Translations under genes and position numbers: made by a program | IMG/VR virus record: IMGVR_UViG_2563366843_000008 | Source: a virus | Taxonomy: Duplodnaviria; Heunggongvirae; Uroviricota; Caudoviricetes | Length of the DNA: 5,913 nt | Strand: one strand, 5' to 3' | In this document: one piece after another, positions 1,026 to 5,913 of the stretch | How the letters are laid out: each line of letters opens with the position of its first letter | Position numbering within the stretch: position 1 is the first letter of the stretch | Notes under the pieces: model-generated | What the model was told of the DNA's origin: nothing | Databases searched by the model: none | The model's input: the letters and a program-made list of their open reading frames with translations, nothing else

Positions 1026-1050
1026 GGGCGCCAGAAATGGCGCCTTTTTT
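1026..1050 (+). terminator. Rho-independent terminator-like hairpin between J and stf
   Basis: Perfect palindromic stem GGCGCC (1027-1032) / GGCGCC (1039-1044) with loop AGAAAT, followed directly by a T6 run (1045-1050). Confidence 0.55.
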
Positions 1051-1065: not shown

Positions 1066-3249
1066 ATGGCAGTACAGATTTCAGGTGTGCTGAAAGATGG
1101 TGCGGGAAAACCAATACAGAACTGCACTATTCAACTGAAGGCAAAGCGTAACAGCACCACGGTACTGGTGAACACGGTGGCCTCTGAAAATCCGGATGAA
1201 GCCGGGCGTTACAGCATGGATGTTGAGTATGGCCAGTACAGCGTTATCCTGCTTGTTGAAGGTTTTCCGCCTTCACATGCCGGAACCATTACCGTCTATG
1301 AAGGTTCCAGACCAGGTACGCTGAATGATTTTCTCGGTGCCATGACGGAAGATGATGTCATGCCGGAGGCATTGCGTCGTTTTGAGGAAATGGTGGAAGA
1401 AGCGGCACGCAACGCTGAAGCCGCCTCTCAGAGCGCAGCGGCGGCAAAGAAATCCGAAACTGCAGCGGCATCATCGAAGAACGCGGCGAAAACCTCAGAA
1501 ACGAATGCAGCTAACAGCGCACAGGCGGCAGCGGCCTTGCAGACTGCATCGGCAAACTCCGCAACAGCAGCTAAAAAATCAGAAACCAACGCGAAAAATA
1601 GCGAGACAGCCGCAAAGACGAGCGAAACCAACGCAAAGTCCAGCCAGACGGCAGCGAAGACCAGCGAAACGAATGCCAAAGCCAGTGAAACTGCGGCGAA
1701 AAGCAGTCAGGATGCAGCGGCTCAAAGCGAGAGTGCCGCAGCCAGTTCTGCAAGCGCGGCGGCTGCTTCTGCCACTGCATCAGCTAACAGTCAAAAAGCA
1801 GCAAAAACCAGTGAAACCAACGCAAAGGTGAGCGAAACAGCGGCTGCGAACTCAGCGAAAGCATCGGCAGCAAGCCAGACGGCAGCTAAAGCAAGCGAAG
1901 ATGCAGCCAGAGAGTACGCAAGCCAGGCTGCGGAGCCGTATAAATATGTCTTACAGCCGCTGCCTGATGTGTGGATACCATTTAACGATTCGCTGGATAT
2001 GATTACGGGCTTTTCGCCGTCATATAAAAAAATTGTTATTGGTGACGATGAAATAACGATGCCTGGCGACAAGATTGTTAAGTTTAAACGTGCATCGAAA
2101 GCAACCTATATTAACAAATCTGGTGTGCTGACAGAGGCTGCCATTGACGAGCCACGATTTGAACGTGATGGCCTGCTTATTGAGGGGCAAAGAACAAACT
2201 ACATGCTCAATTCGGAAAACCCTGCCAGTTGGGGGCGATCGTCAAATATGGATGTTCCCGAAACCGGGACGGATAGTTTTGGTTTTACCTATGGAAAGTT
2301 TGTCTGTAACGATTCTCTGATTGGGCAAACCTCAGCCATTAATATGGCATCAATTGCTGCAACAAAGTCAGTTGATGTCTCAGGCGATAATAAATACGTG
2401 ACAACCTCATGTCGTTTTAAAACAGAACTGCAGGTAAGGTTGCGTATCCGGTTTGATAAATATGACGGTAGCGCAACAACTTTTCTTGGTGATGCGTATA
2501 TTGATACACAAACGCTTGAAATTACTATGACAGGCGGTGCTGCCTCAAGGATTACTGCGAGAGTCAGAAAGGACGAAGCTACCGGATGGATTTTTGCAGA
2601 GGCAACAATTCAGGCAATTGATGGGGAGTTAAAAATAGGTTCTCAGATACAGTATTCTCCTAAGCAGGGCGGGGCAACCGTATCTGGTGACTATATTTAT
2701 CTGGCCACCCCACAAGTAGAAAATGGGCCTTGTGTATCATCTTTTATTATATCAGGAACGACGGCGGCGACCCGCGCAAGCGATATAGTTACAGTTCCCA
2801 TTAAGAATAATCTTTATAATCTTCCTTTTACGGTTCTTTGTGAGGTACATAAGAACTGGTATAAAACGCCAAATGCAGCGCCGCGTGTTTTTGACACCGG
2901 CGGTCATCAAACCGGAGCGGCTATTATTCTTGGCTTCGGTCGTTCAACAGATTACGACGGATTTCCTTATTGCGATATTGGAGGAGCTAACAGACGGGTA
3001 AACGAAAACGCATCGCTTGAAAAAATGGTTATGGGGATGCGTGTAAAGTCAGAGCAGTCTACGTGCTCAGTAAGTAACGGGCATATATCCAGCGAAACAA
3101 AAACCACATGGTCCTGTATTCAGAACACCGCAATTATCCGTATTGGAGGCCAGACTACAGCCGGGTTACGTCATTTATTTGGTCATGTCAGGAATTTCAG
3201 AATATGGCACAAGGCATTGACTGATGCTCAGGTGGGGGAGTCAATCTAA
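1066..3249 (+). CDS. stf: Side tail fibre protein: lambda Stf-like N-terminal domain, phage tail-fibre repeats, and a C-terminal concanavalin A-like/LamG-type lectin domain
   Basis: ATG at 1066 follows GGAG at 1056-1059. The N-terminus (MAVQISGVLKDGAGKPIQNCTIQLKAKRNSTTVLVNTVASENPDEAGRYSMDVEYGQYSVILLVEGFPPSHAGTITVYEGSRPGTLNDFLGAMTEDD) closely resembles the lambda Stf N-terminus as I recall it. Residues ~125-275 are low-complexity A/S/T/K/E repeats (…AAKTSETNAKSSQTAAKTSETNAKASET…). The C-terminal ~430 aa are non-lambda and end in …GLRHLFGHVRNFRIWHKALTDAQVGESI, which fits the terminal strand motif of Laminin-G_3/concanavalin A-like domains (G-x-[IV]-x-x-[FV]-R-I-[WY]-x-[KR]-A-L-[ST]-x-x-[EQ]-[IV]). 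Confidence 0.88.
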   Translation: MAVQISGVLKDGAGKPIQNCTIQLKAKRNSTTVLVNTVASENPDEAGRYSMDVEYGQYSVILLVEGFPPSHAGTITVYEGSRPGTLNDFLGAMTEDDVMPEALRRFEEMVEEAARNAEAASQSAAAAKKSETAAASSKNAAKTSETNAANSAQAAAALQTASANSATAAKKSETNAKNSETAAKTSETNAKSSQTAAKTSETNAKASETAAKSSQDAAAQSESAAASSASAAAASATASANSQKAAKTSETNAKVSETAAANSAKASAASQTAAKASEDAAREYASQAAEPYKYVLQPLPDVWIPFNDSLDMITGFSPSYKKIVIGDDEITMPGDKIVKFKRASKATYINKSGVLTEAAIDEPRFERDGLLIEGQRTNYMLNSENPASWGRSSNMDVPETGTDSFGFTYGKFVCNDSLIGQTSAINMASIAATKSVDVSGDNKYVTTSCRFKTELQVRLRIRFDKYDGSATTFLGDAYIDTQTLEITMTGGAASRITARVRKDEATGWIFAEATIQAIDGELKIGSQIQYSPKQGGATVSGDYIYLATPQVENGPCVSSFIISGTTAATRASDIVTVPIKNNLYNLPFTVLCEVHKNWYKTPNAAPRVFDTGGHQTGAAIILGFGRSTDYDGFPYCDIGGANRRVNENASLEKMVMGMRVKSEQSTCSVSNGHISSETKTTWSCIQNTAIIRIGGQTTAGLRHLFGHVRNFRIWHKALTDAQVGESI
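1438..1890 (+). repeat. Degenerate tandem ~42-bp coding repeats (phage tail-fibre repeat region) inside stf
   Basis: Recurring 14-aa units such as AAKTSETNAKSSQT / AAKTSETNAKASET / AAKSSQDAAAQSES correspond to a ~42-nt DNA periodicity. This low-complexity stretch also produces the spurious overlapping ORFs on both strands (1352-1831 +, 1428-1679 -, 1571-1780 -, 1791-2072 -). Confidence 0.7.
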
Positions 3250-3530
3250 TGAAAGATTTAACACTCAAATTTGAAGACAGGGCCGACTTTTCGGCCTTTA
3301 TGGATAGCACTGGCTATTATGATGACGAGTCGATGCAGGATGATATTCTTATTGACGTGATAGGTAACGTGTACAAAGAAACCGGAGAACTGACTGAAGA
3401 TGGCGAACCGGTATGTGTTAAGGAAGACGGATATTTTGTAAGCGTGCGCATCATTAATGATTCGCAAATATCGTCATTATTCGATGAATACGTGGTTGCT
3501 GTTGAGCATCAACTTCGTGGCTGGATGTGA
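3249..3530 (+). CDS. Small acidic hypothetical protein (93 aa), translationally coupled to stf; candidate fibre assembly chaperone or adaptor
   Basis: Its ATG (3249-3251) shares a base with the stf stop TAA (3247-3249), giving a TAATG overlap. A purine-rich SD-like GGGGGAG lies a few nt upstream. The product is strongly acidic (many D/E: MKDLTLKFEDRADFSAFMDSTGYYDDESMQDDILIDVIGNVYKETGELTEDGEPV…). I could not recognise a family by eye. Confidence 0.65.
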   Translation: MKDLTLKFEDRADFSAFMDSTGYYDDESMQDDILIDVIGNVYKETGELTEDGEPVCVKEDGYFVSVRIINDSQISSLFDEYVVAVEHQLRGWM

Positions 3531-3539
3531 GGAAGAAAA

Positions 3540-4580
3540 ATGGCTACATCGACAGTAATTCCTGATGACATCAAAACGCTAAAATCCGACGTTAGCAAAT
3601 TAAAAAACGATCAAGGAAGCTACGCAACAAAATTATATGTAGACAGCAAAGATGAAATCGTTGGTGACTGGTCTGCTTCATGGTATCAGCAGGTATTGCC
3701 AACTAGCGGAGCTATATTTGGGAGAAAACTCCGCTCAACTCACAGGACGGCAGGTGTTGAGGATGCGTATTGCGAACTATACCTCAAAAAATGGATAGAC
3801 AGTCCAGGTAACGCAATGGCGCGCCTTAACCTGAACGATAACGGGACAAACATTTGCTGGGACTTTACCAACCTTTATGGCGGTACGATGATTTTTCCCG
3901 GTGACAGCGGATACCTCAAAATGGGTAACTGCCTTATGTCATACAGCAAGCGTGGAAGTAACGCGCTTATTAAATTTGATTACACCGACACATTACAGAT
4001 CAAATATGCCAATCATGGGTCAACCATGACATTAAACACACAGGGAACCGCTTATGCTGGTGTTACTGCTCAATTGTGGGGCAACACCAGCCGTCCTGTT
4101 GTTTATGAAGTCGGTGTTGATGGTGGCGCTTATATGTTCTATGCGCAGAAAAATACCGATAACACCTATATGTTAAGCGTTAATGGTGCATGTCATGCCA
4201 CCGCATTTAACCAGCATTCCGACCGGGATCTGAAAGACAACATTCAGGTGATCGATAATGCAACCGACCGCATCCGTAAAATGAACGGCTATACATACAC
4301 GCTTAAAGAAAACGGTATGCCCTATGCTGGTGTCATTGCACAGGAAGCTCTGGAAGCAATCCCAGAAGTTGTAGGTTCCGCAATGAAATATCAGGACGGT
4401 GCAAGCGGATCGGAAGGTGAAGAAGGTGAACGTTATTACACAGTAGATTATTCTGGTGTTACTGGCTTGCTTGTTCAGGTAGCCAGAGAGTCAGACGACA
4501 GAATAACAGCACTGGAAGAAGAAAACGCAGAATTAAGACAAAGATTATCTGCAATTGAGGCGGCGCTTGCGTCTAAATAA
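3540..4580 (+). CDS. Tail fibre/tailspike-like protein (346 aa) with C-terminal intramolecular chaperone auto-processing domain (peptidase S74-like)
   Basis: SD GAGGA (3529-3533) sits 6 nt before the ATG at 3540. The C-terminal region contains …ACHATAFNQH-S227-DRDL-K232-DNIQVIDNATDRIRKMNGYTYTL…GVIAQEALEAIPEVV… and ends in a heptad-like helix (RITALEEENAELRQRLSAIEAALASK). The S-x4-K spacing, with Ser codon TCC at 4218-4220 and Lys codon AAA at 4233-4235, matches the catalytic Ser/Lys dyad of endosialidase-type intramolecular chaperone domains (K1F endoNF, T5 pb1). The stop codon is TAA at 4578-4580. Confidence 0.8.
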   Translation: MATSTVIPDDIKTLKSDVSKLKNDQGSYATKLYVDSKDEIVGDWSASWYQQVLPTSGAIFGRKLRSTHRTAGVEDAYCELYLKKWIDSPGNAMARLNLNDNGTNICWDFTNLYGGTMIFPGDSGYLKMGNCLMSYSKRGSNALIKFDYTDTLQIKYANHGSTMTLNTQGTAYAGVTAQLWGNTSRPVVYEVGVDGGAYMFYAQKNTDNTYMLSVNGACHATAFNQHSDRDLKDNIQVIDNATDRIRKMNGYTYTLKENGMPYAGVIAQEALEAIPEVVGSAMKYQDGASGSEGEEGERYYTVDYSGVTGLLVQVARESDDRITALEEENAELRQRLSAIEAALASK

Positions 4581-4586
4581 TATTAA

Positions 4587-4609
4587 GGGGCCGAGCGCCC
4601 CGTTTTATT
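4587..4609 (+). terminator. Rho-independent terminator closing the stf-orf93-orf346 unit
   Basis: GC stem GGGGC (4587-4591) / GCCCC (4597-4601) with loop CGAGC, then GTTTTATT; it begins 7 nt after the orf346 stop. Confidence 0.65.
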
Positions 4610-4622
4610 GGGTAGGATGAAA

Positions 4623-4916
4623 ATGGATATAACACCTTTCCTTCATGCGCTTTGTGCTGTGGCTGCGCAGGTACTGGTTGGTCTTTTTACCGGGAACTGG
4701 GCTTACGGAGCGATAGCCGGTTGTACGTTCTTCATTGCGCGTGAACACACCCAGGCAGAATATCGCTGGATTGAAATGTTCGGGCATGGCAAGCGTATGA
4801 ATATGCCGTGGTGGGGTGGTTTTGATCCGCGCGTGTGGGATATGGCAAGCCTGGTGGATTTTGCTGTGCCGGTGGTGGCGTGTCTGCTGATCTGGCTGTT
4901 GGTTAATCACGGGTGA
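4623..4916 (+). CDS. Small hydrophobic protein (~97 aa), predicted inner-membrane protein with 2-3 transmembrane segments; function unknown
   Basis: The ORF is open from 4608 (TTG) to the TGA at 4914-4916. In-frame ATGs lie at 4617 and 4623, and AGGA at 4614-4617 gives a 5-nt spacer to the ATG at 4623. Hydrophobic stretches FLHALCAVAAQVLVGLFTG, AYGAIAGCTFFIA and LVDFAVPVVACLLIWLLV are separated by a charged/aromatic loop (REHTQAEYRWIEMFGHGKRMNMPWWGGFDPRVWD). The exact start is uncertain. Confidence 0.55.
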   Translation: MDITPFLHALCAVAAQVLVGLFTGNWAYGAIAGCTFFIAREHTQAEYRWIEMFGHGKRMNMPWWGGFDPRVWDMASLVDFAVPVVACLLIWLLVNHG

Positions 4917-5072
4917 AAAAGGTGAGCTGTAAATGTCGGAGGAAGAACCATCATTGTTGGCGTGGAAGAAGTATTTGTGTTGTTGAATCATGGTCAGCGG
5001 GAGATGAAGGAAGAACTGAATAACTTGGAGGATTTGAAGTCGATACGAATGTTAAGTATTGAATAATGAATA

Positions 5073-5349: not shown

Positions 5350-5913
5350 TCAGAGTCGCATCAATCGTTCCACCAGTTGTTCTTTACGGGCAACGATCCA
5401 GCCGTGTTGCTCCAGATAAAATTTAAACCGCTCCAGAGTGCATACCATCGCATCGGCGGGGACTTTTTCCGTGAACTCGACCTGACCGTGTTTATCGAAG
5501 TGGATCAGTAATGTGCATCCATTATTTTCGTTGAGGGAGTTTTGTGCTGCTGGTGGTTGTTTTTGGCTGAAATAACAGTCTTCGAGTTTTTCGAACACTT
5601 CCCACGCCTGATCGGTTTCGAGCATTTTTGCGTGGCGAGCTGCCCCGCGTTCTGTCCATAGGATGAGGGAGCGGGCTTTGGGAGATATGGGGTTTTGTGA
5701 CTTACTTAAAGTAAGTCGCAAATTTTTTAATTCTTCACCCGATGCTTTAAAAAAGTGCTTTCCTTCGACAAAACGCTCTTTGTTTCTGGTGAAGTTAACC
5801 TGGATATTCTGAATTTCGGTGCCATAAAGCTGCGCCAAAAGTTCAGTGGTAATAACAGGAATCTGGTTATGGGTGATCGGGGAGAGAGTTTCAACAGAGA
5901 TTTGAGTGGCCAT
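5350..5913 (-). CDS. ORF6N-domain (KilAC/antirepressor-like) DNA-binding protein; start lies at the window edge and may be 5'-truncated
   Basis: The minus-strand ORF ends at a TGA (reverse complement of 5350-5352). The N-terminal ~100 aa (…IPVITTELLAQLYGTEIQNIQVNFTRNKERFVEGKHFFKASGEELKNLRLT…ARSLILWTERGAARHAKMLETDQAWEVFEKL…) follow the ORF6N pattern as I recall it (LA-LYG-E…RN-ERF-E…F…EEL … TE-G-A…L…A--V). The C-terminal ~80 aa are unrecognised. The Met codon is the reverse complement of the last three bases of the window. Confidence 0.7.
   Translation of the reverse strand: MATQISVETLSPITHNQIPVITTELLAQLYGTEIQNIQVNFTRNKERFVEGKHFFKASGEELKNLRLTLSKSQNPISPKARSLILWTERGAARHAKMLETDQAWEVFEKLEDCYFSQKQPPAAQNSLNENNGCTLLIHFDKHGQVEFTEKVPADAMVCTLERFKFYLEQHGWIVARKEQLVERLMRL

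Follow-up and report, generated by a model that had tools for sequence, protein, structure and literature searches.

A likely assembly helper or tip subunit of phage tail fibres: a small acidic protein encoded directly behind fibres of the lectin type

We analysed a stretch of 5,913 nucleotides from a virus of the class Caudoviricetes (IMG/VR record IMGVR_UViG_2563366843_000008; this whole stretch is called the window below), which is the tail-fibre end of a lambdoid Escherichia coli prophage. Our analysis focused on orf93, a gene for a small acidic protein of 93 residues (3249..3530, + strand) that directly follows the side tail fibre gene stf (1066..3249, + strand). Across very distant phages, this small gene nearly always adjoins, and is translationally coupled to, a fibre gene whose product has a Laminin_G_3-like module. 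We judge that the protein most likely helps fibres to assemble or forms a subunit of their tip, and is not an anti-defence factor. With moderate confidence, we favour the explanation that orf93 is dedicated to the lectin-type fibre tip, which it would serve as an assembly chaperone comparable to the lambda protein Tfa, as a subunit retained there, or in both ways.

The orf93 gene and its product

The predicted product of orf93 contains 13 Asp, 9 Glu, 4 Lys, and 3 Arg residues, giving a net charge of −15, an isoelectric point (pI) of 4.05, and 24% acidic residues. A first-pass annotation of this DNA, made from the letters alone, had described a strongly acidic 93-residue reading frame whose start overlaps the stop of stf, and both statements proved accurate. 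At the TAATG junction, the stf stop codon TAA (3247-3249) shares its final A with the orf93 ATG (3249-3251), and a Shine-Dalgarno-like GGGGGAG lies within the end of stf (3234..3240, + strand), 8 nt before the orf93 start codon. A stop/start overlap of 1 or 4 nt is retained in 82 of 83 orf93-related loci, and GGAG is present at nearly all of the related junctions between stf and the small gene. The gap from orf93 to the next gene, orf346, is 9 nt, with a GAGGAAG overlapping the orf93 stop codon, and our scan shows no promoter-like or terminator-like site separating the three genes. The annotation had also argued that orf93 is made stoichiometrically with the fibre, a proposal with which the overlap is consistent.

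Because orf93 matches the protein family phrog_1361 over its full length (E 8.2e-45; residues 1-93 of 93, profile positions 1-92 of 92) and has a median ratio of nonsynonymous to synonymous substitution rates (dN/dS) of 0.235 among 42 distinct alleles, we conclude that it is a real gene under purifying selection and not a chance reading frame. The PHROG label of phrog_1361 is function unknown; there is a sister family, phrog_18574, and distant orf93 relatives match both. The family is thus already catalogued, with two PHROGs and thousands of "hypothetical protein" entries.

A −1 frameshift joining Stf to orf93 was considered and dropped, as no canonical slippery heptamer was seen on reading the sequence. 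Further evidence against it comes from relatives, in which the small gene has a ribosome-binding site and a start codon of its own and lies in varying frames at distances reaching +13 nt, and from the absence of fused proteins from the search of representative proteins described next.

A profile search of 1.8 billion representative proteins, clustered at 50% identity, returned 88 clusters matching the orf93 profile. Apart from five large repeat proteins (tetratricopeptide-repeat, PKD-like, and cell-wall-repeat), which we rejected as spurious matches and not fusions, the members are short, of about 150 residues or less, and no orf93-family protein fused to a fibre was found in this set. All members of at least 80 residues that were checked are acidic, with a pI of 4.1-4.8. 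The family is recognizable by an N-terminal M-x-D-[LFY]-x-L-K-F, by D-x-I-G-x-x-Y and G-[YFW]-[HFY]-V-N-x-R, and by a C-terminal P-x-R-x-W. It is conserved down to 25-35% identity, with the frame intact and residues invariant, in unrelated phages without DNA similarity. In the rV5-like phages (L003:5001-5333 and L086:6257-6589), the small protein has 110 residues, including an insertion of about 10, and is without the C-terminal P-x-R-x-W-A ending.

An AlphaFold2 model of orf93, built from a 50-sequence alignment, predicts a small alpha/beta domain with a mean pLDDT (predicted score in the local distance difference test) of 84.3 and a predicted template modelling score of 0.71. The model has strands at residues 2-8, 33-39, 42-48, 54-58, and 62-68 and helices at 11-21, 27-32, and 75-81. 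Residues 82-93, which carry the invariant Arg-90 and the near-invariant Trp-92 of the conserved C-terminal R-x-W tail, are modelled at low confidence, as would be expected of a segment that becomes ordered upon partner binding.

Sequence searches of Pfam, NCBIfam, and PDB, both with the single sequence and with 50 family members, found no relative of orf93; the Pfam scan of orf93 gave no family at E ≤ 1, and the alpha/beta model has no solved neighbour. The profile searches and structure prediction proposed in the first-pass annotation yielded the phrog_1361 match and the predicted fold. Its remark that the protein does not resemble lambda Tfa was borne out (BLASTP E 8.5; hhalign probability 0.04%), and Caudo_TAP matched none of the 50 family members scanned. 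Peptidase_S74 was found neither in orf93 nor in Stf, being confined within the locus to residues 227-278 of orf346. To judge by these comparisons, orf93 is unrelated to known chaperones. No study of the orf93 protein was found in the literature dealing with LtfA/LtfB, engineered Stf chimaeras, phages of the BASEL collections, Laminin_G_3 fibres, or phage 21.

Association with the C-terminal module of Stf

Stf is a protein of 727 residues with an N-terminal attachment domain, an Ala/Ser-rich shaft, and a C-terminal two-domain lectin-like module. It matches phrog_1419 and phrog_3279; residues 1-131 match PF08400 (E 1.6e-67), and residues 1-94 match the tail fibre in PDB entry 9e7m. The first domain of the module (residues 371-571; 2176..2778, + strand) is homologous to the head spike fibre of the Rhodobacter capsulatus gene transfer agent (RcGTA), a polysaccharide-binding jelly-roll, and matches the NCBIfam model NF048003 GTA_spike_fiber with an E value of 1.1e-13 and a score of 52 bits, above the cut-off of 36. 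A profile of the Stf module matches Rcc01080 of RcGTA (PDB entry 6tb9; E 1.2e-47) over this first domain only (Stf residues ~340-580). Domains of the same type also occur in the solved phage proteins 8env gp45, 9b45 gp46, and 9occ gp17.

The second domain (residues 572-727; 2779..3246, + strand; ending ...FGHVRNFRIWHKALTDAQVGESI) is assigned as Laminin_G_3-like with the support of a homologue. Laminin_G_3 scores below threshold on the last ~150 residues of Stf (E 0.0054) and above it (E 2e-10) in L088_679, which is homologous to Stf residues 179-723 (E 1.6e-34). The domain has a net charge of +4 and a pI of 9.0, and its last 40 residues a net charge of +3. Pfam and PHROG profile scans found neither a Tfa nor an S74 intramolecular chaperone for Stf in the locus. 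The shaft (window ~1400-1930, residues ~110-290) is a long repetitive stretch rich in Ala, Ser, Thr, and Lys (…AAKTSETNAKSSQTAAKTSETNAKASETAAK…), which gives several spurious open reading frames (ORFs) on both strands and weak matches to models of structural maintenance of chromosomes (SMC) and serine-rich proteins.

A tblastn search found the orf93 protein in 181 deposited phage genomes. The first-pass annotation had suggested looking at whether homologues lie mostly outside tail-fibre contexts, and they do not. In all 83 E. coli-type loci, the small gene begins right behind a homologue of the final ~430 residues of Stf (~300-727), including in lytic T5-like (62% identity) and rV5-like (45% identity) phages. 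The phage records examined span six groups, namely lambdoid phages (phage 21), Tequintavirus (T5-like), Vequintavirus (rV5-like), Seuratvirus, Drexlerviridae, and Dhillonvirus. Phage rV5 itself has a different gp41 allele and no small gene; because it is without this fibre allele, its proteome is uninformative here. Records MG065692, MG065666, MG065652/3, OR848352, and OR849447, labelled "Campylobacter phage" or "Listeria phage", hold T5-like or rV5-like coliphage fibre cassettes and look like mislabelled or contaminant assemblies.

The same arrangement recurs in a divergent environmental subfamily of 358 IMG/VR loci at 25-35% identity, scanned with a narrow alignment of the family. An upstream ORF of 400-1000 residues is present in about 68 of 80 environmental loci and ends −4 to +13 nt from the small gene, the exceptions being mostly contig ends or frame breaks. 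These upstream ORFs end in a Laminin_G_3-type signature, ...NGxIRKIAYYPxRLTNAQLQALTS. An exact-protein look-up added two more loci, L087 and L088, with the small gene right after a tail-fibre gene; the 416-residue fibre of the latter (L088_416) is homologous to Stf (E 1e-25). Locus L088 (GCA_002994485.1, MTBD01000010.1, 2691-6297) is a bacterial prophage with tandem lectin-type fibre paralogues of 679 and 416 residues, in which the small acidic gene comes after the second paralogue only and is followed by holin and amidase genes. The junction region (window 3100-3700, running from the end of stf across orf93 into orf346) is present in 1069 of 5426 complete E. coli genomes (~20%), and distant versions of the small gene occur in hundreds of environmental phage contigs.

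The association also holds in the reverse direction, as 58 of 72 fibres picked by fibre-end homology alone precede a small-family gene. The small protein tracks the Laminin_G_3-like end and not the first domain of the module, because Rcc01080 has the first domain only and no small partner gene is evident beside rcc01080, where the genes named (rcc01081-86) belong to capsule biosynthesis (PMC10218006).

In the mechanism that we propose, ribosomes finishing Stf would translate orf93 through the stop/start overlap, and coupling of this kind implies that orf93 would be made beside the newly made C-terminus of Stf. The protein would then bind the Laminin_G_3-like end and either fold or assemble the Stf tip, which is the job of Tfa for lambda Stf and would here fall to an unrelated protein, or remain in place as a small tip subunit. 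In enterobacterial phages, the unit formed by the Stf tip and orf93 would probably carry the attachment site for the second fibre, orf346, through a conserved N-terminal peptide, producing a branched fibre. That orf93 physically binds the Laminin_G_3-like domain and acts as a chaperone is inferred, as is its stoichiometry. The acidity conserved throughout the orf93 family contrasts with the mildly basic end of Stf.

Several observations weigh against a dedicated partnership of this kind. Among E. coli prophages, the Stf module is 39-98% identical, with a variable part at residues 383-697 and conserved parts at 293-382 and 698-727, and orf93 is 88-99% identical. Because orf93 is near-invariant while the module varies, it does not match the variable receptor-facing surface, and it could contact the conserved parts of Stf only. 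The remaining 14 of the 72 lectin-type fibres have no small-family gene directly downstream; among them are fibres with a tandem paralogue, a case with an HNH insertion, and cases with a different small acidic protein, for instance one of DUF7936. The small gene is therefore either not universally required or replaceable, for example by a DUF7936 protein. The only virion proteomes published for phages with this gene are shallow and neither detected nor excluded the small protein; they are those of AKFV33 (4 gel bands) and of mar004NP2 (8 proteins), the latter also without detection of the branch fibre. Finally, the monomeric RcGTA fibre, which shares the first domain, bound to cells when produced by itself in E. 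coli (PMC10218006).

In one of these loci (L183; IMG/VR 3300044675_000616, ~3219-3545), the slot after the lectin-type fibre holds an unrelated acidic DUF7936 protein of 108 residues with a pI of 4.1. Its position suggests that non-homologous small acidic partners can substitute for each other.

Second fibres and alternative explanations

The third gene of the unit, orf346 (3540..4580, + strand), encodes a second, putative branch fibre of 346 residues, which matches phrog_4563 (tail fibre) and ends in the intramolecular chaperone domain of the Peptidase_S74 type mentioned above (E 4.8e-14). Its N-terminus, MATSTVIPDDIKTLK (3540..3584, + strand), follows the pattern M-x-T-x-T-x-I-P-x-D-I-x-x-L-K, with which downstream fibres begin in lambdoid, T5-like, Seuratvirus, Drexlerviridae, and Dhillonvirus phages, the remainder of each protein differing. 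Further copies lie at L002:5289-5333, L084:5071-5115, L368:3792-3836, L369:3770-3814, and L370:3789-3833 (window 3540-3584 in orf346). The gene after the small ORF varies, being a fibre of 346 or ~234 residues in prophages, a fibre of 550-590 residues in T5-like phages, and of other forms elsewhere. The common N-terminal motif suggests a branched fibre, with the second fibre attached to the unit of Stf tip and orf93, and the motif is probably its docking peptide. The peptide MATSTVIPDDIKTLKSDVSK is a candidate ligand of orf93, of the Stf tip, or of their complex. A second N-terminal motif, MPSLIGNKPNQVPTNGDLGTLAFQD, is a common start of fibres found right after the small gene in environmental phages, and a fibre of this type follows the small ORF in L090, L101, L118, L126, L130, L141, L144, L150, L160, and L169.

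These fibres raise the main alternative, which is possible if doubtful, namely that orf93 is a structural adaptor that stays on the Stf tip in the virion mainly as a socket for the N-terminal peptide of orf346, with the gene order mirroring an assembly order of trunk, adaptor, and branch. The sharing of one N-terminal motif by otherwise different fibres of five phage groups argues for it, as does a pattern scan of IMG/VR, which found 120 motif-bearing ORFs and a small-family gene just upstream of every one of the 119 with enough upstream sequence; these 119 loci are mostly closely related prophage DNA, however, and hence not independent cases. In prophages, the last 30 residues of Stf, orf93, and the first ~20 residues of the next fibre also form a single conserved block between variable regions, and branched lateral fibres are established in the T5-like phage DT57C (PMC4728585). 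Nevertheless, phage 21, rV5-like phages, and most environmental loci retain the small gene and have no second fibre; at these environmental loci, the gene that follows is holin-like. Its primary tie is therefore to Stf, and an adaptor role is neither ancestral nor its sole function. The docking site could equally be Stf itself, and in locus L179 a MPSLIGNKPNQVPTNGDLGTLAFQD-type fibre adjoins a lectin-type fibre with no small gene between them. The first-pass annotation had linked the gene to both of its neighbours; the tie to the C-terminal module of Stf holds up, and that to orf346 does not extend to these relatives. The evidence at hand does not separate a chaperone from an adaptor role. We regard as rather unlikely, and as less probable than the adaptor role itself, the broader proposal that orf93 is a universal junction subunit on the trunk tip, forming with the last strands of Stf the socket for the MxTxTxIPxDIxxLK peptide. 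If it were true, lambdoid, T5-like, Drexlerviridae, Dhillonvirus, and Seuratvirus phages could freely swap and plug in second receptor-binding fibres, and a common plug-and-socket system for branched fibres would exist across phage families. In the rV5-like loci L003 and L086, which have no motif-bearing second fibre, the next gene encodes a Dit-like tail protein.

The charge of orf93 has led to two further explanations. The protein could be a transient cap or regulator that mimics an anionic glycan and masks the polysaccharide-binding tip until release or host contact, preventing aggregation or binding to cell debris. Its family-wide acidity, opposite a mildly basic fibre end, would suit such a cap, and chaperones kept as removable fibre-tip caps in Alteromonas phages provide a precedent (PMC10579305). 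However, those caps resemble S74 intramolecular chaperones and orf93 does not, and a near-invariant protein is a poor fit to occupancy of a specificity site on widely varying receptor-facing parts of Stf, so that we consider this explanation unlikely. A DNA mimic or anti-defence factor lying in the fibre operon by chance, which the first-pass annotation had offered beside a fibre chaperone or adaptor, is very improbable. Only the small size and the net charge of −15 speak for it, whereas orf93 lies inside a late structural operon, between two fibre genes and with no promoter-like site of its own, and its context is tied to fibres in six phage groups and in environmental phages; in addition, Pfam, including the Ocr and ArdA families, gives no match, and the predicted fold is alpha/beta instead of a helical phosphate-mimicking surface. 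Of the two alternatives offered, the 83 E. coli-type, ~68 environmental, and two look-up loci next to fibres thus clearly favour the fibre-related one. We give almost no credence to the idea that the protein is non-functional and that the block is a conserved DNA linker supplying homology for fibre-module shuffling. The DNA-level conservation that the block shows in E. coli prophages, where its flanks vary, would agree with it, but a dN/dS of ~0.24 and a confident alignment-based fold (pLDDT 84) do not, and it is refuted by the depth of conservation at the protein level, where an intact frame and invariant residues persist at 25-35% identity without DNA similarity.

Surrounding genes, implications, and known systems

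The window matches the Escherichia phages Tritos and HannyBb at 98% identity over 84% of its length; its last ~900 nt are absent from both phages, whose match stops near 4987. The C-terminal part of the J tip protein is encoded at 175-1005, and the scan found a terminator-like hairpin between the J gene and stf (1026..1045, + strand), marking the upstream limit of the stf-orf93-orf346 unit; in phage 21, a terminator is annotated at the equivalent place. The downstream limit is marked by a terminator-like GC hairpin that the scan placed 7 nt past the orf346 stop codon (4587..4601, + strand). After the fibre genes and past this hairpin, a gene at 4608-4916 (+ strand) encodes a predicted membrane protein of 102 residues (phrog_1443, PHROG label function unknown). 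Phage 21 has a 91% identical homologue of it directly 3' of its small acidic gene, annotated as having two transmembrane segments and a signal sequence, and the gene may serve in lysogenic conversion or exclusion. On the − strand, 5350-5913 encodes an anti-repressor of the ORF6N/KilAC type (phrog_2379, E 2.5e-91), whose start codon lies at the edge of the window.

The surface polysaccharides open to a phage are set by its side and lateral tail fibres, which are the main target in host-range engineering. If the small protein is needed to make or complete these fibres, chimeric fibres with this module must carry the small gene too. The putative docking peptide conserved among the downstream fibres suggests a simple principle by which branched fibres could be built. 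If the proposed partnership is correct, the orf93 family deserves a functional name in place of "hypothetical protein" and would represent a new type of chaperone or tip subunit, unrelated to Tfa, gp38, gp57A, and S74 domains and tied to a particular tip domain. The proposal is of moderate specialist interest, carries practical weight for fibre engineering, and is testable in tractable phages (BASEL Bas32 IrisVonRoten, phage 21, and Tritos).

T4 gp57A is a small acidic general fibre chaperone that is not itself a fibre and is linked to fibre assembly. Encoded at a separate locus, this helical protein acts on several fibres. Like gp57A, orf93 is small, acidic, non-fibre, and fibre-linked; it differs in its predicted alpha/beta fold and in its link, in cis, to a single type of fibre tip, and the Pfam scan detected no homology between the two. 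S74 domains and the detached "chaperone caps" of the Alteromonas phages V22 and A5, which are encoded by separate genes downstream of the fibre (PMC10579305), are likewise accessory elements at the fibre C-terminus. In contrast to these, orf93 has no S74 similarity and was never found fused to a fibre, and the S74 domain of the locus belongs to orf346.

Rcc01080 of RcGTA, which is homologous to Stf residues ~340-580, binds capsular polysaccharide and has a short N-terminal peptide as its anchor. It differs in being a single-subunit capsid fibre and not part of a tail fibre, and in being without the Laminin_G_3-like C-terminal domain. An architectural parallel is offered by LtfA and LtfB of phages DT57C and DT571/2, in which a tail-anchored trunk fibre bears a second fibre encoded downstream (PMC4728585). 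The T5-like phages IrisVonRoten, AKFV33, and mar004NP2 carry a cassette of the stf-end/orf93 type in the ltf locus. DT57C LtfA has its own S74 domain, and ltfA and ltfB were described without mention of an intervening small gene (PMC4728585), whereas the trunk fibre of the present cassette has a Laminin_G_3-like end, and a gene for about 90 residues always lies between the two fibre genes.

A further likeness is to lambda Tfa and the Tfa proteins of the Mu/P2 type (Caudo_TAP). Unlike them, orf93 shows no sequence or profile similarity to Tfa, is half the size (93 versus 194 residues), and partners a lectin-like two-domain tip instead of a T4 gp37/lambda-type tip. The two are nevertheless encoded alike, each by a separate small gene right after the side-fibre gene; stf and tfa of lambda overlap by 1 nt, as stf and orf93 do, and orf93 occupies the position of tfa. 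Both proteins presumably act at the distal fibre domain, where Mu-type Tfa is reported to remain bound to the fibre tip (PMC11990801).

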